A stretch of 64,000 bases of DNA. Source: Psammoneis japonica. Lineage: Eukaryota. Positions 1 to 64,000 of the stretch are shown piece by piece. A program made the translations under genes and the position numbers. The stretch is taken from the NCBI GenBank assembly GCA_008632985.1, contig QPGO01000101.1, positions 248,001-312,000 on the forward strand. The letters are read 5' to 3'. The notes under the pieces were generated by a model. That model had not been told where the DNA came from and searched no databases. It saw only the letters and a list, made by a program, of their open reading frames with translations. Within the stretch, counting starts at the first letter, position 1; each line of letters opens with the position of its first letter.

Positions 1-1134
1 CGGCAACTACGAGCTGCAAAAGCCCCAGTAAAAAACCAAACCACAATCCACTGTCGGTAAGAAAGGCCAATTCCTTCTTTCCGGAGATCTGAAACAGCTT
101 CCCCAACAGGGACCGATCTGCCATCATTTGTTCCACAACACAATTTCGTAAACTCAGAACACGATCAATATTGTCTTGTACACTTATAGTCAATACCTTG
201 AGAAACTTGAATCGTATTCGTTGTTGCCAATCCGATTTGGTAGCGGCAGCCGTCAAGACGGCGGAGCGCATCCATTCTGCCGGAAGATCCGACGTTAAAT
301 CTTGAAGGATGGGATCAATCATTTCATCGACTTGTGGTAATAGTATATTGGCAACTGTGGAAGGATCCACACGCTGTATCATTTCTTCCATGGACAAAAG
401 TTGTGTCACTGTGTGATTGCGGAGTGCGTGGGGAAATTGTTTAGAGCTGTACGCCGACTACTGCTGGTTTGCACTGCAATTTCAGAATCTACTTACGCGT
501 GGTGTTGACCATGGCTTCCGTCATCTTTTGCGTCTTTGCAGGAACTACAAAACATATAAGAGAACAAAGAAAATGGATGAGAATGCGCAAGTTTTTTCTT
601 GAGGTTTGCCCTCACGCAAACTTTAATGCTAGTTGCGTTCGTTTTGTTTTGCGAGGATAGAAACACAAACGTACCAATACCCTGCCAACCAATAAATCCC
701 AGAGGTTCACCTTCTTTTTTCCAAAAGGGTATACCACGCCATCGTATCGGTTTGAAAATCATTTGAACCGCCAAGTAATTTGTGAACCATCCGACAAATC
801 CTGCAATGACTGGAATCAACGAGAAAGTTCTCCATCTTGATCGAAACGTCAGAGATCCATGTGCTATTATTCTCTTGCTCAGGGAAACGGCCTGGATGAG
901 TGTCGGAAAGGCGTGTAGAGTCGTTATGCTGCTGCTACTGCTGTACCTGTGTCGTTGAAAGTTGTTCGTTCGAGTAGTACCAACCGAATGTGATTTTGTG
1001 GGAAATGTTGTTGTATGGTATCGAGAGCAAGATGCAGCATGATTCAACGTACTACTACAAAACGCGTCTGATGTACCAATCGCCAATGCAAGAACAGATA
1101 CAGGAACACAAACAATAGTATAGCAAGTCCTCAT
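1..1134 (-). CDS. DUF445-family membrane protein with N-terminal signal/transit-like peptide; 3' end runs off the window. Exons 1134-675, 544-497, 408-<1
   Basis: Spliced translation gives IPVIAGFVGWFTNYLAVQMIFKP...GWQGIVPAKTQKMTEAMVNTTLTQLLSMEEMIQRVDP, the typical DUF445 N-terminal motifs. GT..AG introns at 545-674 and 409-496 keep the frame. TA and CG content are normal. Confidence 0.85.
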
Positions 1135-2593
1135 TTTGTAGCATCAATTACACACGTCACACACAAGTCGTTATAGCAGACGTCTTTCTCATATCCTCAA
1201 CAAAAACCATCAACAACACGCAGCGATCATCGTGCTTCAACTTTGTGTCAGCGGTCATCATAGCGGGGCGCAAAAATCGAAACGGCGACTGACGTGCGCG
1301 CCAAAAAATAGAGACCCGGAAATTAATTTCCTTTAGCTCACTCGACCATCAATGATCGAAAACAATGGATCTCATGGGGTCACGCATGTTGCTTTTTGGT
1401 GGATTGACAAATCCAGGGACTTTGGATTAGCCACATCACTTGGTGTGGGTGTGGAGTTGCCATTCAACCACACTTTTTTCTGCATCTCTGACAGTTGTCA
1501 CCATGGTTCACTCTGTTTCTCTTTGTGGGGCGGCGCTTGTGCATTGCTCGGCAGCAGCACGGGCGCAGTGGTCTGTGCCCCCCCCTGTGCAAGTGTGGGC
1601 TTTCTTCCACAAATCTGCTTTTCCATCAGAAGACTGACACAGAAGCAGTGTGCGAGCCAATGAGAGCACCGCACAAGCTGCAGCAAGCTTGCTCCGCCCC
1701 TTGCAGAGCTGTCCAGCCAGAGCTCCAATTCCGGATTCCCTTGACATTGGTTGCTTCAGGCTCAATGCCTTGCACTTCTGGCTTGCGCCACAGTCATCCA
1801 GAGAGCTGGTCAAAGAGTGCATCAGATGCCGGAGGACAGCAATCAACAACCCATCAAAAAAATGGCTCCGCACAGAGATGAGAAAGTCCTCACACCGCTG
1901 TGTTTGTGCTGCAGAAAAAATGTGGCACAAAACAACCAGCACACACAGCTGTGACTGGCCTTGTGCAGAGTGGGAGGAATTTGATGGCTTTGGAGGCTGT
2001 TGGTCATTTTGAGCAGCAGTGGAGGCCAGCGCCAGCAGCAGCTGCCGGGCAAGCAGATGTGGTTGAGGTGCACAAGTTTGGCAATGGACAAAAGGGAATT
2101 TTGAGGGGGGAGCACTTGGTCAATTGTGGTGGCTGAGCTTTGGCTTTGGGTGGAGGGACCTTCTGCTGCTGTGCCACAACATGATCATGAAAAGAGAAGA
2201 AGGTTTTTTTGCTCTCATGGTGTGTGGCATGCCGTTTTCAATTTTCAAATCCAAGGGTGTGCTTGTTTGCAGATGTGCTGTGCACTGGTGCAGCTGCCTT
2301 TGAAAATGTCTGCAGAAGGCATGCATGTGCTCACATCAATTGAAAATGTTCCCACCAGGGTGTGCCCTGGGCAGCAATGCCAAATGTTGTGCACACCATC
2401 ACATGTTGCGTTGTCCAAAAACCAAAGGCTCAATGTCTCTAACATGTTTTGGTGCTTGTCAAGAGTGAAAATTGTCAGCAAAATAAATTGTTGCATTTGT
2501 GCCATCTTTGTCCACCAATCTTCAATTTGTCAAGTTGTCAACTGCAAAGTCTTTTGTGCGTCCAGCCACAAACAAGTCGACTGTCATTTTTTG

Positions 2594-29420: not shown

Positions 29421-32400
29421 TCACTCAAATGAGCCAGAACAATCCCGATTGTTCGGTGCAAGCGAGCTTTCGTCGCTTTGGCGATACGTCTACAGTCTCC
29501 AAGCAATCGTACAAAGCCCCTGCTCCAGTCGAGAACTGATTGGAAGGGACAAAGATGCAAAGCTTACGTTTACCCCGAATCGAGCAGGCGAAACTTGCAT
29601 TCGATTGTTGGTGCGCTTGAGGCGCGCAGCAGCATCCTCGTCGTCAATTTCCGTGGCAACGCGGGTGAGACCGAGCTTTTCAAAGACGGCATGTTCGAAG
29701 CGCTTTCCGCGATGCTCGGTGGTGTACATTAATTGGACCTCCAAGAAGTTGAGCAATGCTGGGCACAAAAATGTGAGTTTGGAAAGAGGCTGTAGTTGTC
29801 CAGTATTGTTCAAATATTCCAGCAAAGACCGGAAGATGCTTCTTGCTTTCTTAAAGGCCAGCAGGTGGTTGCGAATTGCACTGTACATCAACCCTTTAGA
29901 GGGATCAAATACGAGAATGCTGTTGAGTTGGACCTTGGATACAGGGCATTTGCAGTTTGTAAAAAAGCATCCACCGAATGTTGCCGAAATTTCCAATAAA
30001 TCTTGGTCCGTCAGGTTTGCGTTCTTGGTGACAAATGATTCGCGCACTTTCAGCAACCCGTCTTCAATGGACAATGAACCGATGGAAGGAAGAAGGAAGG
30101 TGTCCTCTTTTCGTTCAATTTTGGAGAGGCTAAAATCCCTTTTGATTGTGCTGGTCAATTTTGAAGCGAACGCGTCGGCTGAATCCACGGAGGGTGGTTC
30201 ATCCGTCGTTGGCTGCGCAAAATCCCATATGCGTTGGGTGATGCCTAAGGACAACTCTTTGGTCCTTGCTACTTGTAAGAACGGCATCACAAGATGCTTC
30301 ATCGCCGTAGATCTGGTTTCCCAGGGAAGAGAGACGGTGAAGACTGAGCGGACGAAGTTCTCTGACTTGACGATAACCTCGGTTGCCTTTGAAGGACTGT
30401 TGCTGGTCACCGCGAACTTCAAAAGGTCACCCGTACGTACTTGAAACACCGGATCGGTGAGGGACTCCCAACTGCCACACGTGATGGCATTCGTGCTGGC
30501 AGCATAAAGGTCATTAGTGGTAAAGAAGTTGGTGCCATCACTTTTTCTGTCGGTAACGGAGCCAACACCAAGAATTTTCAATACATCTGCACTCTGCGAG
30601 AACACAGCATCAATGACGGCTTTCTGTCGTGGTAGGTCCGGCGACGTTTCGAGAATGAACCTGATGAGTTCGAGGTTCTTCTGCCTGCAGGCAAATAATA
30701 AGGTTTGCTCGTCCAACTCTAAGACGCTGAAGCGGTTCAACAGGAACTTGACTAAACCGAGATGACCATGACAACAAGCATTGAGAAGCATTATCGTTGC
30801 CTCTATCTTTGTTGTTGCCGTATCAGGTACATTCGCAAGAATCGTTTCTAGACACTTGACGATCTCTTCGCCGGCCATGGCGTTCGCATTTGTGTAGTGG
30901 GTGAGGTTGAGGCCGTTCTTTTTCCAGTTTGGGTATGGCTTATCTTTTGGTTCCTCCCAGCCGTGGTCCATGGCAATGGCTAAAATGGAGGCAATCATCG
31001 ACGAAGCGGTTTGCTCTTCGATGAGTCGTCCAGTACGGCAAACGACGTTCAGTCCAGTCTCTACAAAGATATCGGCATCCCAGCCATTGCAGATTGTGTT
31101 GAGAATGTCGGAATTGGCAATATCGTTCTCCACTACAACGTCCAGCGTGATCATTCTAATGTCAGACGCGCGTTGGCTACTCTTTTTCACGGCAATCGCG
31201 ATCGCGCTTGAGGCAACCCGATAAACTAGAGAGTGATCTCCGGCCGTTGCCACGTTGGACAAGGTATTTTTCAAAATATCATCCGATTGTTGCTTGGGTA
31301 GATCAAGAATGAGACTACTGATTCCTTCGGGATCGCCTTGCACCTTGCGTAGCGACGTCATTCCTTCGTTCACCCAATCTAATGGGTCTGGACTGGACCT
31401 TTCGTCGGAAGAGCGGCAAGAACGAAGCGTTCGAGCCACGGTAAGCGCGGTATCAACAAAGTTCGTCAGGATGTTACTGAAAAGCAAAACGGGAATTAGG
31501 AGATATCATGTGTGTACAAATCAACGAAATAGCACATACCGAAATTCACTAGGCGTGAGACCTGCCGATATGTCTTCGTAAGTCATGTTGATCACCATCG
31601 CGGTTCCGGTACTTGGGCTCCAAAGTTTGGTCTGTCCCAGGTAGTTGTGCTCCAACGCCTTTCGCATTACTACTGTATCCGGCGCGCCTCCCCAAACCGT
31701 TGTCGAAACACGGAATTTCAGTCCAAGGGCAGGCCCAATAAAGATTTTGAGGTGGCCGTATGTGAAGTGGCACATTCCTGCCTCATCGAGCCGAAGGAAG
31801 GCGCGGATTGATGAATCAATTTCGGTAATGTAGGCTGCCAAGGCTCGCTTGACTGTTTCAACATCGGACTGCTTGGGAACTTCAACCGAGATGGGCGACA
31901 TCAAGTAGCCATTTATACGGCTCTTAACCGCATCCAGGTTCAGATTTTCTCGCCGACCATGAAGGAGCTGCAGAGCATCAGAGATGCAATAATTGGTGGC
32001 TGCTGCTTTAATCCTCTCTCCGGCTTTGATGACACTGTCAATAAAAGTTTCCAACATCTCACAAAATGAAGCCTTGGTGTTTTCTGCTAGTCTCGAGGAG
32101 ACGGAGAACACTGCTTCATTTTTTCCTTTGGTTGCTGCAGGGCATATAAGAAGATTATTGGAAGGATTTCCTAGCTCCAAGAGTGTCGAATAGGAAAGAA
32201 GCTTATCAGCGAATTCCGCAGGTTCAAAAGCACAGTAAACCAAGAAGCTCTGCCCCCGCTGAGGAACCTGGATGAACATCGTATGTTCCTCATGCCCAAA
32301 GGCACACACGCCATCGCGATTCAGTTGCAGGGAACGGCTGATCTGACGGCCAATTGCTTGAAGCAATCCATTCACTTTCTGAATTGGTGAGTTCTCCAAT

Positions 32401-32462
32401 TGTTTTGTGGGCGTCATGTTTTCGAGGCACTCCCTCACGGTTGCATTGTTCCGGATTCGAGC
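29421..32462 (-). CDS. 3' part of the ankyrin-repeat/CesT-domain gene, downstream of the copia insertion. Exons 32462-31540, 31476-29568 and probably 29489-29421
   Basis: Two CesT-like segments (LQLNRDGVCAF...FLVY; LRLDEAGMCHF...MRKALEHNYL...EFRNILTNFVDTA across a 63-bp intron at 31477-31539) and ankyrin-like ACCHGHLGLVKFLL and ACRQKNLELIRFIL. Confidence 0.7.
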
Positions 32463-32467
32463 ATGGC

Positions 32468-32703
32468 AGTCGAGATGCAGTCCTACAGCTGAGTGGGATG
32501 GATGAGACCTCGGAGGTTGGCAGCAATGTGAATGGCGACAGAGGCAAACAGACGCTTGTTGAAAGTCGTTGTCTAGAAAATTTGTGACGAATGTCATTGC
32601 TTCTGTTTGAATCGATTTTGTGATGAGCTAATTATTTCGAAGAGAAAATCTGAGTCTGGGTTGCAGTTGTGAGATGCGACCAGAATGACGTTGAGTCGTG
32701 ACT
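32468..32703 (-). repeat. 3' LTR (236 bp)
   Basis: Colinear with 39479-39714; ends AGTC...GACT. Confidence 0.95.
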
Positions 32704-32724
32704 CTCCCTCTCAACCGAGAGAGC

Positions 32725-35700
32725 TTGCCAGCCCACAAGAGCCTTTCTGGCCACACGGAACGCATCGGTCCGCAGTCCCTTCGTGAACTGATCGGCCAGT
32801 TGCTCTGGAGTGCTGATGGGTTGGATGTCGATCTCCAATTGTTCGACTTTAGTCCTAAACCAGTGGTGCGGGACACCGATGTGTTTGGTTCGCGGAGACA
32901 ACTTGGGCATGCGTGCGAACTTGAGGCACGCGGAGTTATCTTCGCACACAATGGACGCAGGTGGGACATTCTGCTCTACAGGCGAGTCATCGGTGCCTTG
33001 GGTTGCGAGCTCAAAAGCCTTGGAGTGAGTCGTGACAGGGTTTTGGCGGTCAGACTTTCCGAGTGCGTGGTGGTTGAGCTCCTTGAGAACTTCACGAACA
33101 GGGATGAGATCGCGCACAGCTTGAGAAAGTGCGACACATTCCGCTTCCACAGTCGACAATGCTGCAAGAGTCTGCAGCTTGGACACCCAGATGAGCGGGC
33201 AGCCGGTGCAGCAGATGAGGCATCCAGTCCTGGACTTGACAGAAACTGGGTCTTGACCATCTTCCACACCAAATGACCCCGCGAAGTCAGAATCGATGCA
33301 GCAATCAACTCGATGATCTTGCGCAGGCTTGAGAATGAGACCTTCAGCAGCAGTTGCTTTGAGGTGTCGGAGCATCCGCTTCACTGCAGCAGCGTGGGAC
33401 GCTCGGGGCGCAAACGAGAATCGAGCCACTTGATGTGTGGCATGTGCAATGTCTGGCCGGCTGTTCGCTGCCAAGTGCATCAACACTCCAACAACTGAGC
33501 GATGATCGTGGGGTTCATCAAAAGGCAGGCCGTCCGTGTCGGCACCAATGGCCGCAGGTAGAGCTGGAGTGGATGCTCCATTGCAGTCCTGCATCTGTGC
33601 AGTGCGCAGGACCTTGTCAATTAGACCGGGTTGAGCGAGTAGAAATCGACCCTCGGAGAGCTTTTCGATCTTGATGCCGAGAAAGTTGCCGACTTCTCCT
33701 TCGTCTCTAAGTTCAAATGCGTGGCGATGTTCGTCGTCGGAGACTCCTGACTTGCGAATTTCGGCTTCTAGAGCTTCAGCTGAAGCTCCAGCAAAAACGG
33801 TGTCGTCGACGTGCACCACACACATCATGCCCTCTTTGAAATACAAACAGGGATCTGTGGCTGAAGGTGCCCATCCGCGCTCGGTTAAACCAGCTCGCAA
33901 CTTCTTGCAGAAGCCCTTGGGAGACTGTTTTAGGCCGCACAGTCCTTTCAAAAGTTTGAGAACCACATTGAGTCCCGACCTTGGCGCAAATCCCTTCGGC
34001 GGTGTCACACAAACTTCCTCGGCGACATCAGCTTGGCAAAAGGCTGTGGTGCAGTCCACCTGTCGTGCAGTCCATCCCTCCTTTAATGCCGCAGTGAGCA
34101 TGAGTCGGATGCTGGACCATTGCACAACCGGCGCGTGGGTTTCAAAAGCAGTCGACTCCTTCTTTCTGCAAATCACCGCGGACGCAGTGTCGGGCCTTGC
34201 ACTTGAGAGGGGTTCCATCTGGGAGTCTCTTGAGCTTTGGTGCCCATGTGCCTGGAAGTGCATTCACATGCGGCTGACGCTCGACTGCTTTCCAGGCTTG
34301 ACGATGTGTGAGTGCGTTGACTTCAATTTTCATCGCCTCAATCCATTCGTCAGCGTCCGGACCTTTCAGAGCTTTGTTCGACGAAGGCATGTCAGGGTCC
34401 TTGGTTTTCTCACTAGCTGCGCAGGCTCGTGGATCGCCGACATTGATGGCGCCACTGTCCAAATCCGTCTCGAGAGTCGCCAGATGCGCCAGTTGAGCCT
34501 CGTGTCCGATCGGCAGTGGCATTTCCTCGACGGAGCTGAAGCAGACCTCATCTGCAAACTTGGCAGAGTTGAACTGTCCCTTGGTTGACCGTGAAGACCG
34601 TCGCAGCCCTGGTGCTCCCTCTGGATTCGTCACAGGAGGTGTCTCGACTGGGGGAGGAGCTGTTGGTTCCGTCAGCGCTTCAGGTGGCGGAAGTCCGTTG
34701 CCATCTTGAGGTTCAGGTGGCTGAAGTGGCGCAGAGTCCGCAGAGTCTGCAGGAGTTTGAGTCGCAGGTGGGACTGGTGGCGTTGGCTGCTGAGTCGCAG
34801 GTGTGACTCGATCGGCAACGTCGTTGCAAGAAGTGGGTGAATCCGGCACAGCAATCGATGGAGCAGGCTCAAAATGCCCGCGAATGCGTGTTGCTCTGGC
34901 CAGTTCTCGTTCTTTACGTTGACGCTCTGGAGGGGTGAGCCACTCATCGTGTGAATGAACTGCCTGATCCTTCTCCAGAGGGATGCATGTCGATTGGTTG
35001 AGGCACAAGTGTTCCCAGTGATCAGGTGGATCCGTCTCCCTCTCGATTGATGGTGCGGCAGTGAAGAGATCGTCAAAGACCACATGACACTGAGGTGCAA
35101 CACTTCCAGTTTGAAGATTGAGGACCAAAGGAACCTCACTGGAATGGATGGCACTGAGTCCCACGAACAAAGCGCGACGAGTGCGAGGCTCCCAACGCGG
35201 GAGCTTCTTCCCGGAAGCAAGGGTCGGGTCAAGTACGTACGCTGGACATCCCCATGTGTGAATGTCGCGCAACCGATGTCTTGGCACTGTCGAACCGGTG
35301 AAAATGTCCGCTGGGCAATGTCCTTTGGAATTTGGGGTGACATTGTAGATGTGCGTGGCACAAGAAACTGCCATGGGCCATGGGGAGCTGTCAATTCCCC
35401 CCTTCCAGTGGATTGATGCATGAAGCAACATCGCTCTCGCCATGTTGGAGATGCTGTGGATGCCCCGCTCTGTGACGCCGTTCTGATGATGGGCGTTGGT
35501 TCCACAAAAACGGAGACGTTGTTCATGTTCTCGTGTGTGTTGTACAAAAGCGTTGGCCTTGAAAGCGCCACTGTCGGTAAGAAATTCTTGGACGATGACC
35601 CCGTGGTCCAAAGCATGTTTCTCAAACGCTTGCTTCGCGCGTGTCGTCTCAACAGCGGAGAAACCTGGTTGGTGCTCGACCTGGACATAGCCAGAGGCGT

Positions 35701-38700
35701 GGTCGACAAAGATGCAACCGCCCTTGAATTGCTTGGACATGGCTTTGCCATGAGAGTCGAAGGTGTGGCCTAAAAGGCGCGACTCAAAATGATCAACGCT
35801 GACAGCCTGACCCGGTCGAAGATGGTCAGCTCGAAGGGCCCCGTCGCGTTCAGGGACTGTCGACTTGTGAGTAGATCCAAGAGAGCGTCTGTGACCTTTA
35901 GCACATTCGCATGCCTCGCATCTTGGGTGGTCACACTTCGCTGCGGACTTGAAACGGTTCGAAAGGAACGGAACTGCGCGGAGAAGTGCTTGGACGCAGC
36001 CAAAGTTCAAATGGCCAAAACGGGCGTGCATTTCGAGAAGAAGCTTTTGGCCTGCCGTGAGGTTTTGATTCTCCTTGTTAAGGATCTGAAGGTTCACTTG
36101 AGGAGCGGCAGATACGCCCTTGGTCATCGACGCAACGGGCAAGTGGCTTGATGGATGATGTGGCACGACCAACTTGCCCATCCCGTCAACATGTAAACGG
36201 AAAGTGGTTTCATCGCCCTCACACTTCCCACGTACCCCCTTCTCTTCGTTGAAGAGGCGTTGAGGCGACAGCAGGCACTGACGGGCTCCAGGGACGTAGC
36301 ATGCCATGGTGTTCAGTTGGATGGTAGCCCCACTCGGCGTTGTGAACACCCACGCAACCGGACCGGCACCCTGGATGGTAAGACCGTTGGCAATCCCATT
36401 GATCTGTAAGGGATTCTTGGGAACAGTCACAGGCCCCGTAAAATCATCTTTGTCGGGGGCAATGGCTAACGTGGCACCAGCATCCATGACGACCGTGAGA
36501 GCCTCGTCCGACAGACCGATGAGTGCCTGCGGATCGGATGCAAGGAGGTCGGCTTGTGATTGTCCGGTGAGCAGTTGGATGGTGGAGGTGTTGTAGACGA
36601 CTGGTCTAACACTTGCTTCCTCCAACAGTTCCACAGGATCTTGAAAATGGGCAGTGTCCACGACATGATGCGGCAGACAGAGCTCGTCAAACCGGAAGAA
36701 ATCCGGGCTGAAGTCCTCAAGAGCGTCAAAGAAATGCTTCTGGTCGTCGAGAGGTTCCAGTTCCTCACAGGCATCAAAGAAGGCTGATTCGTCTATCGCA
36801 TCAGACCGTTCAGCTACTTCCAGGCTCTCCCAGCAGGCCTTGAGACGAGTGCTCAGTGCGTGTGACGGATGGCGCGTGACAAACTCGGTGAGTGCTTGCG
36901 TGCCTTTGATCCTGTGATGTTCGAACAGTGACCCCACATCCAACACTGTCCGGTCATCTAGCTCTTCCACAATGTGGTAGACTTGAGAGCTGGCGGTCGA
37001 AAAACGACTTGGTACGTTCGAGAATGGATGCTCGGGCTGTTGACTGGCGTAAACTGCTGACCATGCCATCACTGCAACGGATGGGACCATCCAGGAGGCT
37101 GGAAACCCGTGCAAAGTTGGGAGTTTGCGCTGGCGGCGTAGAGCTCGAGGGATGCATGGGATCGGAGCAAAGCAAAGATGTGGTGCCGTTTCCCAAAACA
37201 TGGCGGCGAGCCAGAATGTGAACAGCTTGACTCGACCCAAGAGTGAGCGACGCGAAGTGGGCTCGTCTTCGACGTCCTCGTGACAATCATCCGCATCCAG
37301 GACCTCTGGATCGTAGAAATCGAAGCCACGACACGTGACACACGGAGGCAAGTCGCAGCATGCGTCTTCAAAGTGTACGTCGTGTTCAAGGATGAGATCC
37401 AACTTGGTGTCGTCTGACAGCACATCCGTCAAATGTGCGGGAGCGTCAAAGAACTCATCTGGATGCTTGACAGAGTACAGCTTCGAGGCCGGAAACAACT
37501 CAATGGCCGGTGGTTCGTTTTCAAAGGTAGAGAAAGCATCGGAGCATTCGCAGAAGTCATCGGCGTCTTCGGGAGTGACAGTCTCAACCACGATGGGAGA
37601 CACGACTGGATCCACGACTGAGGTGAGCACAGGTGGGCTCGTTTCGATGCAAACCACCTCAGTGCTAACGACTGCATTGCTCTCCCTCTCGGCCGAAGAA
37701 GCCGGAGTAACAACAATTGCAGCAGTGACAGGGGCGGAACAGAAATCCGGGTCGGCAACGGGATCCGTAGCCGCGCACCACATTCCCGTGAAAACCAACT
37801 CGTTGGGGTCGGATTCGTCTCCCTCTGGTGCCTTGGCAGTCTGAGCGGGCGGACCCATGGGCACGCCACTGTCTGGATCAGCAACGGAAGACAAATTCCC
37901 GGCTGGGGTCTCATTGGGAGGTTGCCTGCGGTCGTCGGCATGTTCCGCGGTAGAGTGTTTCTGGTGGATTCCAATTTTGTCGGCACCCTTTGCCGTGCAC
38001 GTGGCACACCACTTCCATTCCTTGCCATTCTTGTCCTTCTTCATTTCTCCGTCAAATTTAGCACGCCAGGCAGCGATGGGTTGCCTCTTCTTCTTGGAAG
38101 GGTCGTCTGCAGGCGGCGGATTGGGAGGAGGATCGTCGCGCGGCGGTTTGGCGTTGCACTTCGGACACGTCTTCTTGGTGTGCCCCTCGAGACCGCAACC
38201 ACAACAGTGCTTCATCTTCCCAGGGCCATCCGCAGTCGAAAGATTACTCTCAGGTAGCTTGGCGACTAATGCAGGCCATTCCCCGTCCTTCACGAGTTCG
38301 TTGTGTTGCTCTTGAATCCACGCAATGATGCCGACCGGTCCGAGCGTTTTGCAATCGCTGTCGGACACGATGTCAGCAGGATTCTTGAGGCGGCACTTGC
38401 GTTCCATGGCCTTGACGTCGTCGAGCTTGTTGCAGACTCGGCGATTGAAGTGTTCAGAGGACGTAGAGGAGATCTTGTGGAGCAGCTTGGAGCTTGTGTT
38501 CGCCGGAAGCACGCAGTCGGTCTGCACAATTTTCACGATGCGAAGAGCTTCGGCAGCAAAATCCGTGCAATCCTCGCCGGGATGGCCAACCAAACTGAGG
38601 TCTTCCAGCTGCTTCTCAGCCGTCTCAATGTCCGTCAGAGCGCTGGCATTGCAAGTGTCGAGAGCCATCATGAACAGAACAGATCCAGGGCAGTCTTGGC

Positions 38701-39316
38701 AGTCCGAAAGATGGTTGAACTTGGTCTCGATTTTCTCGCGAAAGGCATCAGTGATTCTTGAGTGAACGAGAAGTTGAGAGAGCCCGACATCGTCGAGCTC
38801 GATCTCGTCGTACTTGGTGTCATCGGCAGCTGCTTTCCCAGCCATGCACTCGTTCACGAGATCGGTCACAGCAAACTCGTGAAGATGGTCGAAGACACAT
38901 TGAACCTTGTCGTCGCTGTCCTTGACATGGCAGAACGTCTGCTGACCGTGGGCTTCCACTAGATCTCAAACAGTCTTGACGAAATGGTCCTTGTCAAGCT
39001 CGTTGATGGGACCGTCCGAAATCTCAAGTCGACCGTTGAACTTGGAAGTCATTGCGGAAGCTTGTTGACCGCAGAGAGATCGTTCTGTCGAGTCGAGAGC
39101 CTTGGGATGACGGCGCTGAGAGGCGAGTCGGCAGGTTCTGTCGTTGGATTGTTCGCAGTTGTTGTTGAGTTTGGAACCACCAATGTGAACCCCGTGGGCT
39201 GGGTGAACTCCACCACGCAACGGCTTGGTTGGAGCCGGAGGAGCGGTCGCCGCGGCGTCAGCGGCCATTGCATTGGCAAACGCCTTTGCCAGAACATCTG
39301 GATCGATGGTGGCCAT
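32725..39316 (-). pseudogene. Copia gag-pol polyprotein pseudogene
   Basis: Zn knuckle CxxCGLEGHTKKTC, protease MDAGAT, integrase HARFGH..CEAC and SVDH/TDSG/NGVTER, RT LCGLKQS and HVDD, RNase H DSDFAG/EAEC/EDN/ADQFTK. Lesions: in-frame TGA at 38966-38968, frameshift near 34142, and the presumed stop read as CAA at 32725-32727. Confidence 0.95.
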
Positions 39317-39478
39317 GATGGAGAGTGCAGTGTGGGAGGCTCTTGTCAGAGTGAAGACGAGAGAAGCGAGAGAGACTCAGCCATTTCCCGGGTTTGCTTC
39401 AACATCAAAAACCGAAAGCGTCCGTGACGATGACTCGGTCAGGAGCTCTCGTCAATGCGCAAATTGGTCTCTGTGGCC

Positions 39479-39714
39479 AGTCGAGATGCAGTCCTGCAGC
39501 TGAGTGGGATGGACAAGACCTCGGAGGTTGGTGGCAATGTGAACAGTGACAGAGGCAAACAGACGCTTGTTGAAAGTCGTTGTCTAGAAAATTTATGATG
39601 AGTGTCGTTGCTTCTGTTTGAATCGATTTTGTGATGAGCCAATTATTTCGAAGAGAAAATCTGAGTCTGGGTTGTAGTCGTGAGATGCGACCAGAATGAC
39701 GTTGAGTCGTGACC
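39479..39714 (-). repeat. 5' LTR (236 bp)
   Basis: Colinear with 32468-32703. Confidence 0.95.
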
Positions 39715-42498
39715 ACAGTGCAACGGGCTTTGTCCTTTCATGTCAGTCTCTTGTGTGTTCATGCCCAACTGGCCCACCATGTGGCGCAGGATGGCAATGC
39801 TGTCATGCTCTACAGCGCAGTGAGCAAGTGTTTCACCGTTTCGACCACGGGTGCCCGGTTTGACAACGTCAACCACCCAGGATACAATTCTTGGATGCCC
39901 TCCGTGGCAAGACGCTTTGAGAATCGCTGTGCTTTGATTTTCGATGTCGGCTTTCAAAAAGAACTGCCCAATCCACTCGTGCAACTTCAAATGACCAAGT
40001 TCGGCAGCTCGTGCAATGACGGATTCATCATTCTCGCCACGGTGCGACATGTCGAAATTGAATGTCTCTTTGAGCCAGACAACAAAGGAGAAGCGGTTTT
40101 CACTCCCGGCGGTTCGAACGTTGTCGGCAGACAGCACCGCCATCATCAAGTTCTCGTTCTTCTCCTCCCGAACAGCTCGCACCTGCTCTGGGGTCTCGCG
40201 TGCATTCAACAGTGTCTTGACGGTCTGGAATTCGCAAAAGCGTGCGGCTTCTATTACGAGAGGTTCCAACGTTCTTCGGGGGCACTCGACTTTCTCACCA
40301 ACAAGTGTTGTCAACACATCTAGAGAAATGCCTGAACCAACAAGACTGTCCAAGAGCTTTCTCGCCTGGTCCTCGCTTGTAGGAGTGACCATTTCAACAG
40401 AGTGCAGACACCACGCAAGGAAACTGGCTCTGCGCTGAACGTCAAGTGGGTGCTTCGGAGCACCATTCTTTGTCCTGTTTTCACCAAGAATGGCCAAAGC
40501 TGCCTTTACCGGGTCCTCGTTTACAAGCCGTAGCATTGGTTCGGAGAACAGACTCGCAAGCGACAAGTCTGCCACTTTAAGTGCCTGTTCTAGCACCAGA
40601 TTTTGCAAGCCAGTACCTGGCGTCTTCTCCTTGTAAAGAGAATCAACGAAAGGTGCGAGTTGTCCAGTCCGCACAGACCAATTCGGCGCATTTTGAATGA
40701 CCTCGCTAAGAAAGATATCCAAAGGCACATCAATGCCACAGTCCCTGTCGATGTTGTTGATCTTATCTAGGTCACCCAAGCTGTTAGAAAGCACAGTGCC
40801 GTTCTTGGCCGCCATCATAGAGAGACTCGAGCTTGGAGTTCCCTTATACGCGAGACCATGGTGCTCCAGACAATCAATCAGTGCACCAAACCCTTGACGT
40901 CTGCATGCCGACTCAAATAGCTTATTCACTTCAGATTGAATAGTGCATTCTTTCAAGTCTAGATCTTCGCGACGCGAGAGAAGAATGTCGATCAGATCAA
41001 GCGCACCGCTGGATACACAGTGCTGCAAAACAGACGTTCCACTGTTGTCGCGAGTGTTGATGTCCATGTGTTTACCCCTACAATGCTCATCATAGAAGTC
41101 TAGGTCCAACAAAAATTCGAACAGCTCTTTGGAATGTGTCTCGGCAGCCATTGAAAACAGGTTGCGTCCCTCCCAGAAAGGTTCGTTTAGAAATTTCGAG
41201 GCCTTGCTCAAAAGATATGCAAATATTTCACGGTTCCCATTCTGGGCAGCGCAAACCAAGCAGTTGAAGCCATTGCTGTGCTTGTAGTCCCAGCTTCCGG
41301 GCGCAAGTTCAAGGACACATTTTACAGTCTTGAACGACCCAGAGCCAATGGCTTCCTCCAGATAAGTCTCAAAATTGATTTCTCGCAGATCAAAAGAAAG
41401 ATCAGCTCCCTTTGCAACCATCATTTGAACTAACTGATAGTTTCCCTTTCGCAAAGCCAAGCGAAGAGATGTAGTCATGTCAGCACGATCAACACTCTCA
41501 AGCAACATACTGCAAGTCAAGGGCGAATGCCAGCGCAACAAAGCATTGTTGATGGGGTGGGAGATAGCCCACGCTGACCACATAGAGGCATCATTAGCCT
41601 GTAACAATCCAAGACTCATCTTGTAGCTTGCACACAGTAGCGCCTCATCCAAAATGGTGAAGCGGAATTCATCAATGCAATCGATAGCGAGGTTGAATTC
41701 TTTCAGCAAGAGCTGAAGCATTTCAGGAGAATGAACGGCATAATGCCCCAACGTGGAAAGCAAACTATTGTTTTCAGTCTTTACACCCAGGTCTCGCAAC
41801 TTGACAACAATCTCGACATTGCCGCTGCGAACGGCATTCGAAATGACGCTACCATCAGCATCAATGTCGTCCACCTGAGACATCCATTCCAACGTCCAGT
41901 CAACATCACCAGATAACGCTACAAAGACATAAGCAACGTCTTCGCCCGACCATCCGTGAGCTCTTTTCCACTCTGGCTGGGCGTTGTACTCGTTCACGAG
42001 GCGCCTCGTCTCTTCCTTACGGCCCAAAGCCGCGGCTTCGGGAAGCTCGACGATCGCTTTCTCATTACTCTCGAGACTCAAAATGTATTCCAAAGTCTTG
42101 TTAGCCTTGTGAGAAATAGCCTCGGTAAGCGCACTACAGAGCGATTCATTCCGATGTTGCAAGATATCGGCGCCGAAGCGCTGAACCCAATCTTTGAGAA
42201 TCGTGACAGAGTCATTCGCAGCAGCCACCATGACTAAATTCAACGAAAGATAGTGGCTGTATTCCGGATCATAGCCGAATCCATCGATATCAATGATTTG
42301 GTACTTGTGGACGTTGCGCATCCCGAGTCTGATGCGTTCTCGTCCAACGTTACCTTGCAGAGCCGCGTCTGGATAGATACACAAATCCAAGGCACTTCCT
42401 GACCCGGGCATCATATCGAAATCCCAGGCATTTGGGTTAGACGACGTGGGATCGATCGGAACGCTGTCCGAGTTAGATGGCTCGTTCTTGTTACTCAT
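39715..42498 (-). CDS. 5' part of the large ankyrin-repeat protein gene, interrupted by the copia element
   Basis: Many ankyrin repeats (NAVRSGNVEIVVKL, LALRKGNYQLVQMM, AAQNGNREIFAYLL, GETLAH, GQSPLH). Probable start MSNKNE at 42498. The frame continues exactly at 32462 once the element and one TSD are removed. Confidence 0.85.
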
Positions 42499-59200: not shown

Positions 59201-60492
59201 ACAGCCCATCCAAAGTACCGTTGCCCTCGTGGTCCAGATTCGATCGGGTCCTCGTTGTTTACAATGGTTTGACCGATTTGTTCAAGGACCAATCTTGTGG
59301 GTGCAGGTGTAGCTGTAGGAGAAGCAGATTCTTCTGGAACAAACACAGCAGGTGGCGTCTCGTTATCAGACTTGAAGGCAAACACAACGGAAATAACCGC
59401 TCCACCAACGAAGAAAATCAACCCGATAAGGGCGATTCGACTTTTTTTCGTATTAAAGACAACCCACCGTTTTGCTTGAGTAGCTACAGCAATGGGGGCA
59501 CCGCCGTCACTTCGGTTTCGGGGTTCAGACGCCACGGGCTGGCCATGAACCGGCGTGGCGGTAGGCAGAACTTCTGGCCCGTGTGCTTGATTCTGCACGG
59601 GAGCGGGCACCTCTTCATCACGGTAGGGAATTGAATCAACACCTTCTTCTGTCGATGGCTCTTGTAGAATGACTTGGTCAAGTGCATCCACAGTATTTGC
59701 AGCATCGTTCCCTTTACTGGCCCTCCAACGGCTGCGAGCATCGGCTGCTTGATTCTCGCTTAAATAGGGCTCTTGGGGGCTAGAAGATTTGTTTGCTTTC
59801 CATCTGTTCCTCGCACTGTGCCAAGTATTTTCTCGGGAAAGGAAGGCTGCTGCGGCTGCAGCTTTACGCGAAAGCCAGTTTTTTCTTGCACCATTTTCGT
59901 TCGTTCTGTTCGCAACCAACTGCTCGGGGGAATGGTTGTGAACTTTTTCCTTGTCTTTGACGTCTCGGGAGTTTCTTGCGCTGTTCCCGTATATGGCACT
60001 ACTCGTTGGCACTTCTCGTCGAGTACCACTCTCACGTTGTCGCCCTTTATTGTCTTTGCTGGTTTTGGAATTTCTTGCGATATTTCCATAGATGGTGCTT
60101 GTTGGCGCTTCCCTTAAAGTGCCACTCTCGCGTTGACGTTCTTTACTGTCTTTGATGGTTTGAGGGTTTCTTGCAGTATTTCCATAGATGGTACTCGTTG
60201 GCACTTCTCTTAAATTACCAATCTCGCGTTGATGTTCTCTATTGTTTCCATAGATGGTGCTCGTGGGTCTCAAAGTACCACCCTCACGTTGTTTCTTCTC
60301 GTCTCCCTCGCGTTGTTTCTTCTCTTCTCCGGGCTTCACCTTCGTCTCCTCCTCCAAGGGAACGCGTGGAGGCAGAGTCATGGGAGTTAATTCTGGATAC
60401 TCATCATTGCGCACTCTGTCATCGCTTGTCAGTGATTGACGTGGCATTGGTGGTTGGGTAGGTTCATCTGCTTCGGCCTTGCCACGGACCAT
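53254..60492 (-). CDS. Large single-pass (type II-like) membrane protein with four FG-GAP/integrin-alpha-type beta-propellers
   Basis: Uninterrupted ORF, likely start MVRGKA at 60492. TM segment IALIGLIFFVGGAVISVVFAF, >20 FG.SVSLS.DG..VAVGAP repeats in four clusters, PT-rich linkers and a DSFGDGLCC module. Confidence 0.92.
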   Translation of the reverse strand: MVRGKAEADEPTQPPMPRQSLTSDDRVRNDEYPELTPMTLPPRVPLEEETKVKPGEEKKQREGDEKKQREGGTLRPTSTIYGNNREHQREIGNLREVPTSTIYGNTARNPQTIKDSKERQRESGTLREAPTSTIYGNIARNSKTSKDNKGRQRESGTRREVPTSSAIYGNSARNSRDVKDKEKVHNHSPEQLVANRTNENGARKNWLSRKAAAAAAFLSRENTWHSARNRWKANKSSSPQEPYLSENQAADARSRWRASKGNDAANTVDALDQVILQEPSTEEGVDSIPYRDEEVPAPVQNQAHGPEVLPTATPVHGQPVASEPRNRSDGGAPIAVATQAKRWVVFNTKKSRIALIGLIFFVGGAVISVVFAFKSDNETPPAVFVPEESASPTATPAPTRLVLEQIGQTIVNNEDPIESGPRGQRYFGWAVELSADGKRLVVAAPYHKKVQVYDFSAENGLWVQTGEIPVPSGFIDHIVLSDTGAVLAIGVPRRNSEEHEQAGMVQVYSEVSFGTWDPKGGPIFGKSKGDMIGGFRPPDGVYQRPGDFDDDFEYRDDESVPLSLDSYDSSSMALSEDGQILAVGSSRGNYVLVLIFDYTSSRWKDLGTTDFVGEARRDKFGTSVDLSADGHRIVIGAPDNLGKASIEWLVYTGHVRVYEYQEETDSWMKLGQDIEGDVGEGEDTLGKQGEQAGSGVSISADGTMIAVSSNYRGASEDIYTVGNNDGNVKVYRYAESRDEWIQIGNTVNIFQFGLELRDNDRGQYALISGLQSEKYPIVSRLSRDGKRLAVSVLAESLNGDLKGRGVVRLYELRGETWTTIGTPIEGTSDWDHSGRTISLSYNGSRVAIGAPRHNSKQPDDGQVRVFELEGTTTTPMPTPTTSAAPSVTSGPPVPLTLALDLDNHPEYLAWSLECGGVTIGNATEGSYGAMEFQRTNITQTFLIPEGSLCLLSVSSVQDLKSFRVYYGEGAPEDNPVIIDTSQMHLWEGLNSQPSFPFFVTAGTAAVFISIQLDGRRTETTISLFCDEVPFVEGYLLSKRPFALTNMAIMGITEGAKCVFTIEDSFGDGLCCGGYYKIHYGVSTGGNLLAAGGQFAARENVSFIVSPDEDPLTKPPTRPPTLSPGATISPTRSSWAQVGQVLAGKASFDRVGASISLSRDGSIMAVGTGQYNSIPGYVSVFRWKQDTQEWTAVGQELIGQAIGDAFGNSLSLNGNGTIVAVGAPGNDAGHVRVFQYIDGTDRWIQIGNDIHGKARFDRFGASVSLSDSGAILAVGAVHGEPDDGSNTGSVHLFRYNVGERVWNQLGQKLVGEATYDEFGASVFLSSSGAIVAIGAPDNDSGGLSNAGQVSVFQYDPPSSSWEPLGNSTNGQVKGGGFGSSVALDDSGMVMAVGGPGTFFGSRLPSQAGSHTGRVSVFVHDRATSEWTSRGQTLITQQSGDYFGLSVSLSSNGNVLAVGSPFRDANANTVNLLRETGQVTLYNYNTITRSWIQFGESLIGEAKSGAFGSSVSLSGDGTLIGVGAPHSDDNGANSGSVYVFQSPFIFDSGTAAPSKSPAPTTTQPTTFPTSTSAPSQLPFNKWSPLGQVLNGRASTDLFGVSIAVSRDGSIVAVGAEQSLGRRPGYVSVFRIDPDTEEWTIVGEDLVGRTSIDTFGVSVSLSGDGLTLAVGSDERNSGGRSAGFVQVYEFNKSIDNWVQLGNSIVGQTAGDRSGFAVSLSDSGAVLALGAFLESTDNGENSGSVRVFQHNRSTSSWTQLGQTLIGQAPDDQFGVSVSLSRSGTIVVIGAYGNDSGTNNAGQVSVYELNSSTLWEQLGGPINGQELDGWFGRSVSVDDSGLVVAVAAPGDFMDESLVGRVLVYAYDRTTKSWTKRGGTLMSQQRNDQFGSSVSLSGTGSVLAVGSRRYGDLGESNENVGQVAIFQYNMEKKQWLRAGNSIDGEERLDNFGSSVALSANGRVVGVGATGRDINGEDSGSVYMFTVNPVLPTPAPTRRLTAPPTITPAPTKIVPGEWKPLGQVFTGKASFDHAGDSISLSRDGSVMAVGAVQNPGPGYVSVSRFYRNTSSWMPMGQNLIGLSNGDGFGDSISLNDDGTILAVGARSNVHTGQNAGRVQVYEYDGVLDSWVQLGSDIDGQVSGDLFGFSISIAGAGDILAVGAVNDSTQNGLFSGSVRLFRLNRDTSSWQQLGQPLLGKVELDFFGTAVSLNRLGTVVGIGASGNDFGGTRTGQVLIYEYNSTASNWEPLGDPINGAIRWGEFGRSVSLSDDGVVIAAGAPGDPADKTRIGRVSVFKYDQASSTWTRRGQTIISQQRNDDFGALGTLSLSGTGTDVAIGSPLRHVNGENFFGQVEIFRYDADASEWFQVGEKLSGKTTPDTFGFAVSLVANGTVVGVGARWSNSNGNESSGYARVFSLD
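59975..60330 (-). repeat. Intragenic tandem repeats, about 4 x QRE.G(T)LRE.PTSTIYGN
   Basis: Visible in both DNA and translation of the cytoplasmic N-terminus. Confidence 0.85.
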
Positions 60493-60843
60493 TCTGTCAA
60501 TGTGAATACGATGTTGATATTCGTTTCCTTCCAACTGCGCTGAAATAACGATGAATTGCTCGACAATGAAAAATTCAAATGCCTGAACCCTCACAATTTA
60601 TGAATGTGAACGCAAGCTACAGCAGTAACAGGAAGAATTGAAACAGGGGAAGAAGGCATGACATGTACAGCACTTGTAAGGATAACGCCAAACGCCTTGT
60701 AACTTACCGGTGTGCGGTATGGCGGGTATCGTACCACACCCACACCGTCGGTTCAACTTGTATCCGCGATTCGGGGATCGTGGATAGCCCTAGTGGTCCA
60801 AGGACGGACACACAGCATTTTGTCGCCAATTGCGACATTCCCA

Positions 60844-63546
60844 TTCTACGTGGCCTGGTACAACCCAAATCTGTGTAGATTCAGTACATTTCGCCCTGTA
60901 GAACAGTTTTTGGGGTGTGTTTTCTGGCTCGCGACGCAAAATAACACGCAAAATAACACGGACAATGGCGTTTCGCCGATTTCAAAAATACGGTTGTTTC
61001 TGAGGTACTTTGTAGTGTACTCTCAACGGAATGTCACACGTCATAGCATGAGGCATGTGACAAGCTCGAGAGCACACAGGTTCACATGGGTGGATCATGG
61101 TGAAATTTTGAACTGAAGATTGGTGTTGACACCGCCGATTTTGTTGCATCAACACGCAACTCATGCATCACCATTCATGCTGTGCATTTCGTTGAGTGCT
61201 CGTGCGCTCATGTTCTTTCAACTTACACACATGTTGTCTTTCCTCATTGTTGTTTTGTTCTGCAGGGTCTCCCTTGCCATGGGCCATCCCTGAGAGAGAG
61301 ACGCTTGCTTTGAATGTCACTTCTGCCTTGCAACGGCCACGGCAGTCTGACGACAAGTCCAAGTCACAGATGCAGCATCCGGATGACTCCATGATAAACA
61401 CAGAAGCTTGGGTCTGTGGTGTCTGAAGATGTTCAAGCTCTTGGCAGCTCAGATTTGTCGTCGAGCAATTTTGGCGCGCATTTGACGTGCCTCCAGAAGG
61501 TGATGCGCAGTTTTGTTCGACAGAGAAATGAGCCATGGCGATTGTGATGGCTCACATTGAGTCTTGCAGATGCAAGGCAGTTTACAACATAGAAACATGT
61601 GACTTGTTTGCCTCATCTGCCAAGCCTGTGCAACACATTCAGATGTCAAAGTCAGGGCAAATTGTGCACAATGCCAAGTCTCCAAAAACAGCACAAGAGT
61701 GCAAGCCCAAAAGAAGAATTGGCTTTGTAACTTGTCATGGGAGTGTAGAGCTTGTTTTTCTGGGGCATCATGTCTCTGTTGTTTTCATGGAGTGGACATT
61801 CACTGGTGTTGTCGCCGCCAACATGCGAGCTCGCCTTGACAACATGTTGCACTGCATTCTGAGAGTTTGGAGTGAAAAAACAACTTGCACCTACATTGTT
61901 CTGTCATGACAGAAATGTGTGAGCTGTCCCTGGCCCTTTTGGAGAAATGGGGCAAGTGAAAGAGGAGCTGCAGAAAGATGCAGATGATGCCATTTTGATG
62001 GATTGTCGTCAGGTGGTGTGTCGAGAGGAGTCGTGATGGAGTGCCGCTTTGTGTTTTTGTGCTGCGTCTGTGCAGGAATGTNGCGTGCTTGGCTCTCGTG
62101 TAGTTTCCACACAAAAAGTGCACCAGGCAATCTCTGGACCGCCCTCTTAATTGCCGAAGGCATGTCTGCCACGGCACACAAACACAACATCATCTTAAGT
62201 GATGACTGCCAAAATCAACTTTTGGCGAAGACATGTGTGTCAAGAGGGCGGTCCAGAGATCGCCTGGTGCACTTTTTACACAGAAACTGCCAGAGAGCCA
62301 ATCACGCACATTCCCACACAGACGCAGTGCAAAACAGAAAGCATGGCACTCCATCACGCGACCTCACGACGACACCACCTGACGACAATGCATCAAAATG
62401 GCGTCGTCCGCATCTTTCTGCAGCTCCTCTTTCACTTGCCTGATTGCTCCAAAAGGGCCAGGGGAAGCCAACAAGCTTTCTCTTGCAATGGAGCAATGCA
62501 GACAAAAGTTGTTTTTTGTTCCAAAATCTCAGAACACAGTGCAACCGATTGTCAAGGTGAACTTGCACGTTGGCGGCAACAACACCAGTTGATGTTCACT
62601 CTAGAACAACAATGGAGACGTGACACCCCAACAAAATGAAGTCCACACCCCCATGACAAATTTCAAAGCCAGCTCTTCTTGTTGGCGTGCAATCTTTAGC
62701 TGCTTTTTAGACTTGACAAAATGATCATCTGCCCCGGCTGTCACCCTCCAAGTTTGTTGCATTGGCTGACAAATTGGGCAAGCAAGCCACATGTTTCTAG
62801 CTTGCAAACTGCCTTGCAGCCAAAAGAAGCAATCTAAACCTTCAGAACAGCCATGATGCACTGGTCTGCCGAATCAAACTCCACATCACCAAGTGGAGGC
62901 GGGGAGAGCCATTGTCAAAAATGCACTGTGACGGATCTGAGCTCTTGAGAGCTTGTCCAGCTTTTGACACCACATGGCCCCAAATCACCACATTTGTCAT
63001 GAAGTCAGCCTGATGCTGTGTCTGTGACTTTGCCTCGTTTTGGAATTGCTGCGGCCATCGCATTGCAGAATTGACATTCTTGATGAGGAAAAGTGTTTCT
63101 GGGATGCCTTGCGACGATGGAGACCCTGCAGAACAAAAGAACAATGTAGAAAGAGACAACACATGCAAGTCAAACGGGCATTGATGTGTGAAGCCTCAAC
63201 AAAACACACAGCACAAATGGCGACACATGAGGTCGGTCGTGATGCAACAGAAGTGATGCTGTCAACGCGAACCTTCAGCAAGAATTTTCACCATCAGCTG
63301 CCCATGTGAGCCTGTGTGCTCTCGAGCTTGTCACATGCCTCATGCCATGACGTAAGATGTTCCGTTGAGAGCACACTGCAAAGTGCCTCAGAAACAACCG
63401 CATTTTTGAAATCGGCGAAACGCCATTGTCTGTGTCATTTTGCGTGTCATTTTGCGTCGCAAGCCAGAAAACACTCCCAAAAACTGTTCTGCAGGGCAAA
63501 ATGTGCTGAATCTACACAGATTTGGGTTGCACCAGGCCACACAGAA
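60844..63546. mobile_element. Foldback-type non-autonomous element: imperfect ~2.7-kb palindrome with ~1.3-kb arms
   Basis: 60844-61100 is the reverse complement of 63290-63546. Further inverted matches: 61230-61400/62990-63170, 61800-62050/62350-62590 and 62100-62150/62240-62290. Centre near 62195. Confidence 0.85.
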
Positions 63547-63633
63547 AATGAACGGGCCGAGAACTGTGGTGCGCCCACTTGGTTAAGTGGGCGTGCCAGA
63601 GTTTTCGGCCCGTTCACTTTCTACGTGGCCTGG
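63532..63633. repeat. ~100-bp hairpin (49-bp arms, ggtt loop) overlapping the foldback terminus
   Basis: ccaggccacacagaaaatgaacgggccgagaactgtggtgcgcccactt-ggtt-aagtgggcgtgccagagttttcggcccgttcactttctacgtggcctgg. Confidence 0.85.
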
Positions 63634-64000
63634 CAAGGACTGAGGCGAGCGCGCGGCCACACGAAGTTGTCAGTCCCGCCCACTCGTGACTCAGTGCATT
63701 TCCACGGTGAAAATTGCGCAGGAATCTGACGATGACAAAAACGGTCAGATGACTTCCACTGACTGCAATGTGAGCCGCACCTGACGTACATTCTTTGTTT
63801 GTTCACAGTTGAGTTGACCATTTCAGGCGTTGCATGCAGTTGCTTTGACAAATTGGAAGTCATCCGAGACAAAACACAAATCGCACGGAGTGCCGTGGAT
63901 TTGCACGCAATGCAGTGCTTGGCGTCATTTTGGTGAAATTCATCAAAGTGACTGCATCCAACGCTCAAAGGTGTTAATTCATGCACAAAAGAAGATGCAA

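Follow-up and report, generated by a model that had tools for sequence, protein, structure and literature searches.

Does a mutator that attacks mobile DNA stop where the mobile element stops, or does it run on into unique host sequence, and what then sets its limit? This question is raised by a 64-kb stretch of contig QPGO01000101.1 (positions 248,001 to 312,000; Psammoneis japonica, assembly GCA_008632985.1), referred to at its full length as the window, in which a Ty1/copia long terminal repeat (LTR) retrotransposon splits a host gene encoding ankyrin repeats and a CesT-like region. A reading made from the letters alone (the sequence-only reading) had held that hypermutation of TpA dinucleotides leaks out of this element into the single-copy exon beside it. 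The present analysis confirms that the unique DNA on both sides of the element is mutated, that its TA dinucleotides underwent the same changes to CA or TG as those of the element, and that they did so after insertion. The central features, including the two parts of the interrupted open reading frame (ORF), are as follows.

32467..39713, minus strand: Ty1/copia LTR retrotransposon
39478..39713, minus strand: 5' LTR, 236 nt, 94% identical to the 3' LTR
32467..32702, minus strand: 3' LTR, 236 nt, with a polypurine run just inside
39715..42498, minus strand: 5' portion of the host ORF split by the element, encoding ankyrin repeats (Pfam Ank_2, E 3.6e-29)
31524..32465, minus strand: 3' portion of the same split ORF, encoding CesT-like domains (Pfam CesT, E 2.6e-7)
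39714..40250, minus strand: leak zone on the right, in unique host exon that encodes the final ankyrin repeats and precedes the 5' LTR, 2 TA
40251..40517, minus strand: transition zone, TpA possibly reduced, not significant alone
32283..32466, minus strand: leak zone on the left, where the same host ORF resumes past the 3' LTR and its CesT-like part begins, 0 TA

TpA loss in the unique flanks

Two classes of DNA alternate along the window, one TA-normal and one nearly TpA-free, and the gene split by the copia element lies on the minus strand of a TA-normal island (approximately 29050-43000) between two TA-free tracts. In TA-normal DNA, the observed-to-expected ratio (o/e) is 0.5-0.56 for TA and approximately 1 for CpG. 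The baseline for the flank counts consisted of 17.5 kb of TA-normal sequence from the same window, in which TA accounts for 3.6% of dinucleotides (one per 27.7 bp). None of the 15,387 sliding 537-bp segments scored in this baseline has fewer than 8 TA, their mean being 19.4; TA-free gaps reach 190 bp at most, and empty 184-bp segments make up 0.036%.

Against this baseline, the exon beside the 5' LTR is TA-poor with the coordinates and content that the sequence-only reading had described: positions 39714-40250 contain 2 TA where approximately 19 are expected (Poisson P 8e-7), at 39811 and 39883, and the next follows at 40252. On the other side of the element, positions 32283-32466 contain none where 6.6 are expected (Poisson P 1.3e-3), with the nearest TA at 32282. 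Comparison of TA with CA plus TG against the rest of the gene gives Fisher probabilities of 5e-6 for the right zone and 8e-4 for the left. Depletion in the right zone affects all three codon-position classes and hence extends beyond tyrosine codons. In the encoded protein, the ratio of Tyr to His plus Cys is 0:18 in the two zones combined versus 26:39 elsewhere in the gene (Fisher 4.8e-4).

Both zones begin exactly at the ends of the element. To the right, approximately 10% of TA survives over 0-536 bp; in the 270 bp that follow, survival is possibly near one half (not significant), and from there on it is normal; counts at 40251-40499 are borderline (4 TA versus 9 expected, P 0.055). To the left, TA survival is zero across 184 bp and normal straight after. 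The mutator therefore reaches approximately 184 bp on the left and 540 bp on the right, in agreement with the few hundred bp originally proposed. However, TA loss in the flanks holds level and then ends in a step, in place of a smooth gradient with distance. Nor can the absence of Tyr from 40250-40640 be counted as evidence for a wider zone, given that homologous proteins likewise contain 0-1 Tyr there. The flanks were hit at least as heavily as the ends of the element: of at least 18 TA sites in the LTRs, 8 survive, as against 2 of approximately 19 and 0 of approximately 6.6 in the flanks. Among candidate Tyr-derived residues of the leak zones, His (T to C on the coding strand) accounts for approximately 5-6 and Cys for 2-3, and the CA and TG counts of the right zone lean likewise; this hints at more A-to-G change on the template strand, with numbers too small to test.

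One host gene, cut by a young element

The element has the hallmarks of the Ty1/copia group, namely an LTR pair, a 5-bp target-site duplication, the order gag, integrase and reverse transcriptase (RT), and Pfam domains for gag-pre-integrase and RVT_2; its target-site copies match only if a TA-derived doublet is allowed. Since gag/pre-integrase precedes RVT_2 on the minus strand and the polypurine run lies just inside the LTR at 32467-32702, the LTR orientation assumed by the sequence-only reading is right, and it is the 5' LTR that the ankyrin exon adjoins. Depletion of TpA in the element is partial (66 TA remain, o/e 0.18), with G+C raised to 0.55 and CpG normal (o/e 0.91). The two LTRs differ at 15 positions, of which 10 are TA versus CA or TG sites (three of these being TG-versus-CA doublets), four are CpG transitions and one is of another kind. 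At least 9 ancestral TA sites can be recognized per 236-nt LTR; as this is the normal host density, the copia copy was TA-normal when it inserted and lost its TA in place. From the one ordinary difference in 236 nt, the rate at TpA would, as a rough inference, be at least two orders of magnitude above background.

The minus-strand ORF that encodes the peptides singled out by the sequence-only reading continues into the 5' LTR. When HMMER was run exhaustively with the final 368 residues ahead of the LTR as query, it returned 497 hits at E <= 0.001, the best 150 of which were listed. Among the matches listed, three are full-length homologues (P0001, 1254 aa; P0003, 1313 aa; P0014, 1991 aa, a Seminavis robusta protein of 26-27% identity), and the others are generic ankyrin proteins. 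When the window gene is aligned with these three, its halves abut at columns 1017/1018 without a gap, showing that one ORF was cut by the insertion rather than two genes separated by it. Word-indexed protein searches contributed no further relatives: the C-terminal part of the ankyrin half gave 0 hits, and a search from the homologue alignment gave only two ankyrin proteins, both unrelated. The neighbouring ankyrin ORF was considered as a paralogue for reconstructing ancestral states and rejected, as it shows no similarity. The architecture itself is unusual, in that a eukaryotic ankyrin-repeat protein carries a region that matches CesT (a bacterial type III secretion chaperone family), and this region is kept in all three homologues. 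P0014 is collinear with the interrupted ORF and also with the next ORF (29493-31505); the stop and frame change near 31505-31523 that divide the two window ORFs could represent a small intron, division of the gene or an additional lesion.

The uniqueness of the flanks was assessed by mapping contigs from the only sample found to contain this DNA, its likely source (three runs, one study; no RNA data set was listed), onto positions 31000-41500 at a likeness of at least 90%. Coverage of either flank comes from one contig, at a depth of 61-64 (60.9 for the right flank), and these contigs end inside the LTRs; the summed depth over the interior of the element is 2,500-6,400 per bin, 40-100 times that of the flanks. 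At this likeness, therefore, the flanks are unique and the element is multi-copy. BLASTN within the window revealed no second copy of either flank. Together with the collinearity of the flanks with the three homologues, this upholds the claim that hypermutation reaches single-copy host exon. The assembly and the sample contigs differ at four flank positions (32399 A>G, 32412 C>T, 40828 C>T and 41263 G>A); all are transitions, two at CpG and none at TpA, and two of the four fall inside the left leak zone. Strain drift or polishing, among other causes, may account for them. With regard to the copia copy, its gag-integrase and RT ORFs overlap in different frames at 34142-34263, and the base at 34145 is missing from most other copia copies in the read set (depth 520/627), indicating a private frameshift in the window copy.

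Target-site copies and conserved tyrosines

The order of events is recorded in the target-site duplication:

32462..32466, no strand assigned: left copy, CATGG, giving codon CAT (His) on the minus strand
39714..39718, no strand assigned: right copy, CACAG, giving codon TGT (Cys) on the minus strand

These copies differ by a single TG/CA doublet, as expected from ancestral TA. The codon they contain encodes Tyr in all three homologues, its column having been assigned after correction of the MAFFT placement of the last Cys. If one copy is removed, the frame runs open through SPLH-Y-ARIRNN, collinear with the homologues and in keeping with the ankyrin motif. The pair is thus a single ancestral TAT that was duplicated on integration and struck once on each strand, giving CAT and TGT. 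Because the copies diverged from one TAT, the mutation must be post-insertional and must have acted on chromosomal DNA.

Conserved tyrosines elsewhere in the gene follow the same pattern. Alignment columns with Tyr in at least two of the three homologues were used to compare the window gene with its relatives. The left zone contains three such columns, with Tyr in 3/3 homologues at each, where the window gene has His (32465), Cys (32429) and His (32294), as the proposed comparison with orthologues had predicted. Just outside this zone, Tyr is retained at five of five conserved columns; in the control part of the ankyrin half, it is retained at four of eight, the rest being H, F, G and C. Where a single homologue has Tyr, the window gene has His or Cys at 4/7 columns in the right zone versus 0/22 in the rest of the ankyrin half. 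The homologues each possess 1-3 Tyr in the columns of the right zone and 3-4 in those of the left; the window gene possesses none. Conserved Tyr inside the zones is replaced solely by His or Cys. Counting the target-site codon twice, TA can be polarized as ancestral, and CA or TG as derived, at four codons with Tyr in 3/3 homologues.

These comparisons separate the residue-level proposals of the sequence-only reading. Derivation from Tyr is well founded for the Cys of SPLHC, the Cys of VRECLE and the first His of AFGHEEH, all three homologues having Tyr at each. It is merely plausible for AHCAV, VEHD and LRHMV, where the homologues have F/Y/C, Y/F/C and L/F/Y respectively. The suggestion of collateral gene damage can be retained as to kind, conserved Tyr having indeed been rewritten to His or Cys, but not as the cause of gene loss, the gene having already been cut by the insertion.

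Position versus repetition elsewhere in the window

Other repeats in the window provide information on what the mutator recognizes. The relevant features are as follows.

1500-29000, 43000-50000 and 61050 to the window end: near-TpA-free tracts
60482..61044, no strand assigned: outer left arm of an inverted duplication, in TA-normal DNA by a large host ORF, TA kept at 14/17 informative sites
63347..63898, no strand assigned: partner right arm, inside a TA-free tract, TA kept at 2/17
914..1240, no strand assigned: spared copy of a repeat of approximately 300 bp, in TA-normal DNA, TA kept at 8/8 and 11/14 informative sites
27062-27275 and 27446-27757, no strand assigned: two further copies of this repeat, both mutated, lying in the 27-kb TA-free tract, TA at 0/8 and 0/14

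The near-TpA-free tracts have a TA o/e of 0.04-0.12, a CA/TG o/e of 1.7-1.8 and a CpG o/e of 0.35-0.6, and their edges (approximately 1428, 29047, 43000, 50097 and 61050) are sharp. The inverted duplication (60482-62171 versus 63898-62223, 73% identical) straddles one of these edges, its left arm beginning where TA is normal, directly upstream of the 2447-aa host ORF at 53254-60597. Its outer arms are 89.9% identical over 207 nt by BLASTN, with differences mostly at TA sites. Inward of approximately 61090, conversion has reached both arms, which keep TA at 8/38 and 4/38 sites and show frequent CA-versus-TG doublets. As the divergence of the arms is mostly TA-derived, the duplication is not an assembly fold-back. 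It is large, old and palindrome-like, with its centre near 62197 and a single N at 62082, and its left arm enters the region upstream of the 2447-aa ORF.

In both repeat families, the copies in normal DNA are spared and their partners are mutated, which indicates that repetition is insufficient and that position is decisive. In combination with the overshoot beside the copia element, the spared repeats favour a positional, chromatin-like domain with sharp edges as the target. The CpG content of these tracts suggests a second, slower change: the old tracts are CpG-poor and the young copia element is CpG-normal (0.35-0.6 versus 0.91), yet four of its 15 LTR differences are already CpG transitions. 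Two processes seem to be at work, a fast loss of TpA and a slower decay of CpG, the latter of which would fit cytosine methylation of the same domains.

Proposed explanation and alternatives

The following course of events is proposed. A copia retrotransposon inserted into a coding exon of the ankyrin/CesT-like host gene, after which A:T-to-G:C hypermutation limited to TpA (TA to TG and TA to CA, on both strands) acted on the integrated DNA. The domain acted on comprises the element and the unique exon at both its ends, approximately 184 bp to the left and 540 bp to the right, where a tail may run to approximately 800 bp; within the flanks, approximately 24 TA sites were converted and conserved Tyr codons turned into His or Cys codons. 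The target may be a silent, chromatin-like domain nucleated by the element, with sequence repetition as such not serving as the cue, and the sharp edges of such domains would overshoot into a dead gene here and stop short of the upstream region of an active gene elsewhere in the window. The chemistry could most simply be adenine deamination in DNA at 5'-TA, by analogy with the proposal made for Bigelowiella natans. Taken as a whole, post-insertion, TpA-restricted hypermutation of a chromosomal domain that includes unique flanks is considered the likely account of this locus. Its more specific component, that the target is a silent chromatin-like domain seeded by the element, is only slightly favoured when taken on its own. 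More tentative still, and somewhat doubtful in its full breadth, is the general proposal that a stramenopile, probably a diatom, possesses a DNA-level, TpA-specific A-to-G defence aimed by chromatin state rather than repetition. Its domains would end in steps of a size between one and a few nucleosomes; a fresh insertion would engulf 0.2-0.5 kb of unique exon, and a repeat beside an active gene would be spared. To read 184 and approximately 540 bp as nucleosome multiples is only numerology at present.

The strongest competitor, though an unlikely one, is a mutator dependent on pairing or homology, which would share the logic of repeat-induced point mutation (RIP) with another chemistry, recognize the multi-copy copia element and leak past the paired segment. 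The element is indeed multi-copy in the read set, and leakage of RIP, itself dependent on pairing, extends at least 930 bp in Neurospora; in Leptosphaeria maculans it reaches single-copy effector genes (PMC2973834). For this reason, leakage as such does not point to chromatin guidance over pairing, contrary to what had been argued from the sequence. However, repeat copies in normal DNA are unmutated here while their partners are saturated, which is not the outcome of RIP, since that process strikes both partners; the flank is mutated as heavily as the LTR; and the main text of the B. natans preprint describes its hypermutated giant-virus (nucleocytoplasmic large DNA virus, NCLDV) insert as single-copy (10.64898/2026.01.13.699255). 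It is also improbable, and considerably more so, that the flank segments were themselves repeated when mutated, as a segmental duplicate or transduced flank, which would turn leakage into ordinary repeat targeting. Copies below 90% likeness would escape the contig mapping and ankyrin genes form families, but each flank lies on one contig, the contigs break in the LTRs and not at 40250 or 32283, the adjacent ankyrin ORF is no paralogue, BLASTN within the window finds no second copy, and the zones start at the element ends.

Very little likelihood attaches to the remaining two accounts. Under the first, chance, local base composition or ordinary substitution within the lineage would have left the flanks poor in TA, the insertion having simply landed there. 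TA is under-represented host-wide (o/e approximately 0.5) and the homologues are also Tyr-poor at 40250-40640, as this account would have it; against it, 17.5 kb of normal DNA contains no 537-bp segment with fewer than 8 TA, target-site copies that were identical at insertion now differ by TG versus CA, and invariant Tyr columns read His or Cys solely inside zones that abut the element exactly. Comparably remote is a change at the RNA level, in which ADAR-like editing of element or read-through transcripts is fixed by reverse transcription before integration. An A-to-G change with a 5' U/T preference resembles ADAR, and the element replicates through RNA, but the flank DNA runs without a break into the rest of the host gene and has never passed through reverse transcription, the LTRs and target-site copies diverged after integration and on both strands, and repeats that are not retroelements are affected too. 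RNA editing is refuted as the source of the flank, target-site and LTR-specific changes, although it could still add inherited changes to the interior of the element.

Several considerations weigh against the preferred explanation, post-insertional hypermutation of a domain. On the right flank the protein support is thin, the homologues having only 1-3 Tyr there, and the case rests on DNA dinucleotide counts. Ancestral states are drawn from homologues of just 26-42% identity, and an empty allele was not found among the sample contigs (none links 32466 to 39714, though contigs cannot prove its absence). The spared repeats are short or diverged (73-90% identity), such that pairing with a length or identity threshold is only weakened by them. 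Sharp edges of old tracts cannot show leakage because element ends are undefined there, and the window includes only one young insertion.

Relation to known mutators

In plants and mammals, heterochromatin and DNA methylation nucleated by transposable elements spread hundreds of bp into unique flanks, asymmetrically and with fairly sharp limits. This spreading is epigenetic and reversible, whereas the presumed footprint in the window is permanent base substitution. Deaminase-type transition hypermutation of retroelements is known from APOBEC3 and ADAR, which act on cDNA or RNA before integration; unlike the process seen here, they cannot reach flanking host DNA or make target-site copies differ. 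A 5' U preference of ADAR is noted in the main text of the B. natans preprint (10.64898/2026.01.13.699255).

The closest parallel is that described in this same preprint, the only relevant report on TpA hypermutation found in the literature; no report was found that links diatoms with hypermutation, RIP or TpA. As stated in its main text, two viral regions integrated in B. natans gained 231 mutations in mutation-accumulation lines, 230 of them A to G or T to C and all of those at TpA (10.64898/2026.01.13.699255). They arose at approximately 1000 times the background rate, and the giant-virus region is both single-copy and transcriptionally silent (10.64898/2026.01.13.699255). TpA-depleted clusters occur genome-wide and are enriched in transposon domains, and an ADAT2-like adenine deaminase has been proposed (Mettrop et al., 10.64898/2026.01.13.699255). 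So far as that text describes it, the B. natans system resembles the present one in its exclusive TA-to-TG and TA-to-CA changes, its action on both strands and in place on integrated DNA, its foreign or mobile silent targets, its TpA-depleted and CpA- plus TpG-enriched clusters, and its independence from repetition. Features of the B. natans type found in the window are the type of change, the ancestral state of TA, and action on both strands of integrated DNA. The systems probably differ in host, and they differ in TA content (3.6% of dinucleotides here versus 6.0% in B. natans; 10.64898/2026.01.13.699255). Judged from the sequence, the host is probably a diatom rather than B. natans, although this assignment is weak at identities of 26-33%: the interrupted gene has one named relative, from the diatom Seminavis robusta, ORFs of 3-7 kb lack introns, and TA is scarcer than in B. 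natans. ESM Atlas comparisons of the RT and of a DOT1-like ORF gave no information on taxonomy. The B. natans evidence reported there consists of de novo mutations, whereas the process here is known from standing sequence alone. The main text of the preprint does not mention flanks, boundaries, spreading or CpG (10.64898/2026.01.13.699255); leakage into host exons, sharp edges and the accompanying decay of CpG therefore go beyond what it describes.

Fungal RIP provides a looser comparison. In Neurospora crassa and Leptosphaeria maculans, this mutator of mobile DNA also alters unique genes within a few hundred bp, along with their proteins (PMC2973834). However, RIP converts C:G to T:A mainly at CpA and creates TpA, whereas TpA is destroyed here and the element has a G+C content of 0.55. 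RIP requires paired duplicates and mutates both, whereas the window has an unmutated arm in its inverted duplication and an unmutated copy among the three of its other repeat. Leakage of RIP is described as proportional to proximity (PMC2973834), in contrast to the plateau and step observed here. Hence the window shows neither C:G-to-T:A change nor mutation of all copies, and it shares with RIP only leakage into unique DNA, as an analogous behaviour.

Implications for mobile DNA and host genes

Three constraints follow from the sequence of this locus: the mutator acts on integrated DNA rather than RNA or cDNA, it acts on both strands, and how far it extends is governed by a domain, which can be larger or smaller than the repeat. 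The main text of the B. natans report is silent on how targets are chosen and where mutation stops, and this locus bears on both. As conserved residues of host coding DNA beside a new insertion were rewritten, the defence has a cost; genes close to mobile elements could also evolve faster because of it, in the way that fungal effectors do under RIP leakage. A diatom host would give the system a wider distribution than so far recognized and would place it, counting B. natans, in two distant branches of the Stramenopiles-Alveolates-Rhizaria (SAR) grouping. If mutation is aimed by chromatin, TA-free tracts would constitute a permanent sequence record of past heterochromatin boundaries.

Other observations on the window

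Related copia loci were sought in metagenome contigs as a source of independent flanks, and the search yielded two short loci of 34% identity, which were unusable. As the stop codons TAA and TAG cannot occur without TpA, the copia element and the TA-free tracts contain many long ORFs that overlap in several frames. Those in TA-free tracts are likely spurious and likely to mislead gene predictors. The window also contains ORFs of 3-7 kb without introns, and its DOT1-like ORF has two relatives, with 73% and 59% identity.

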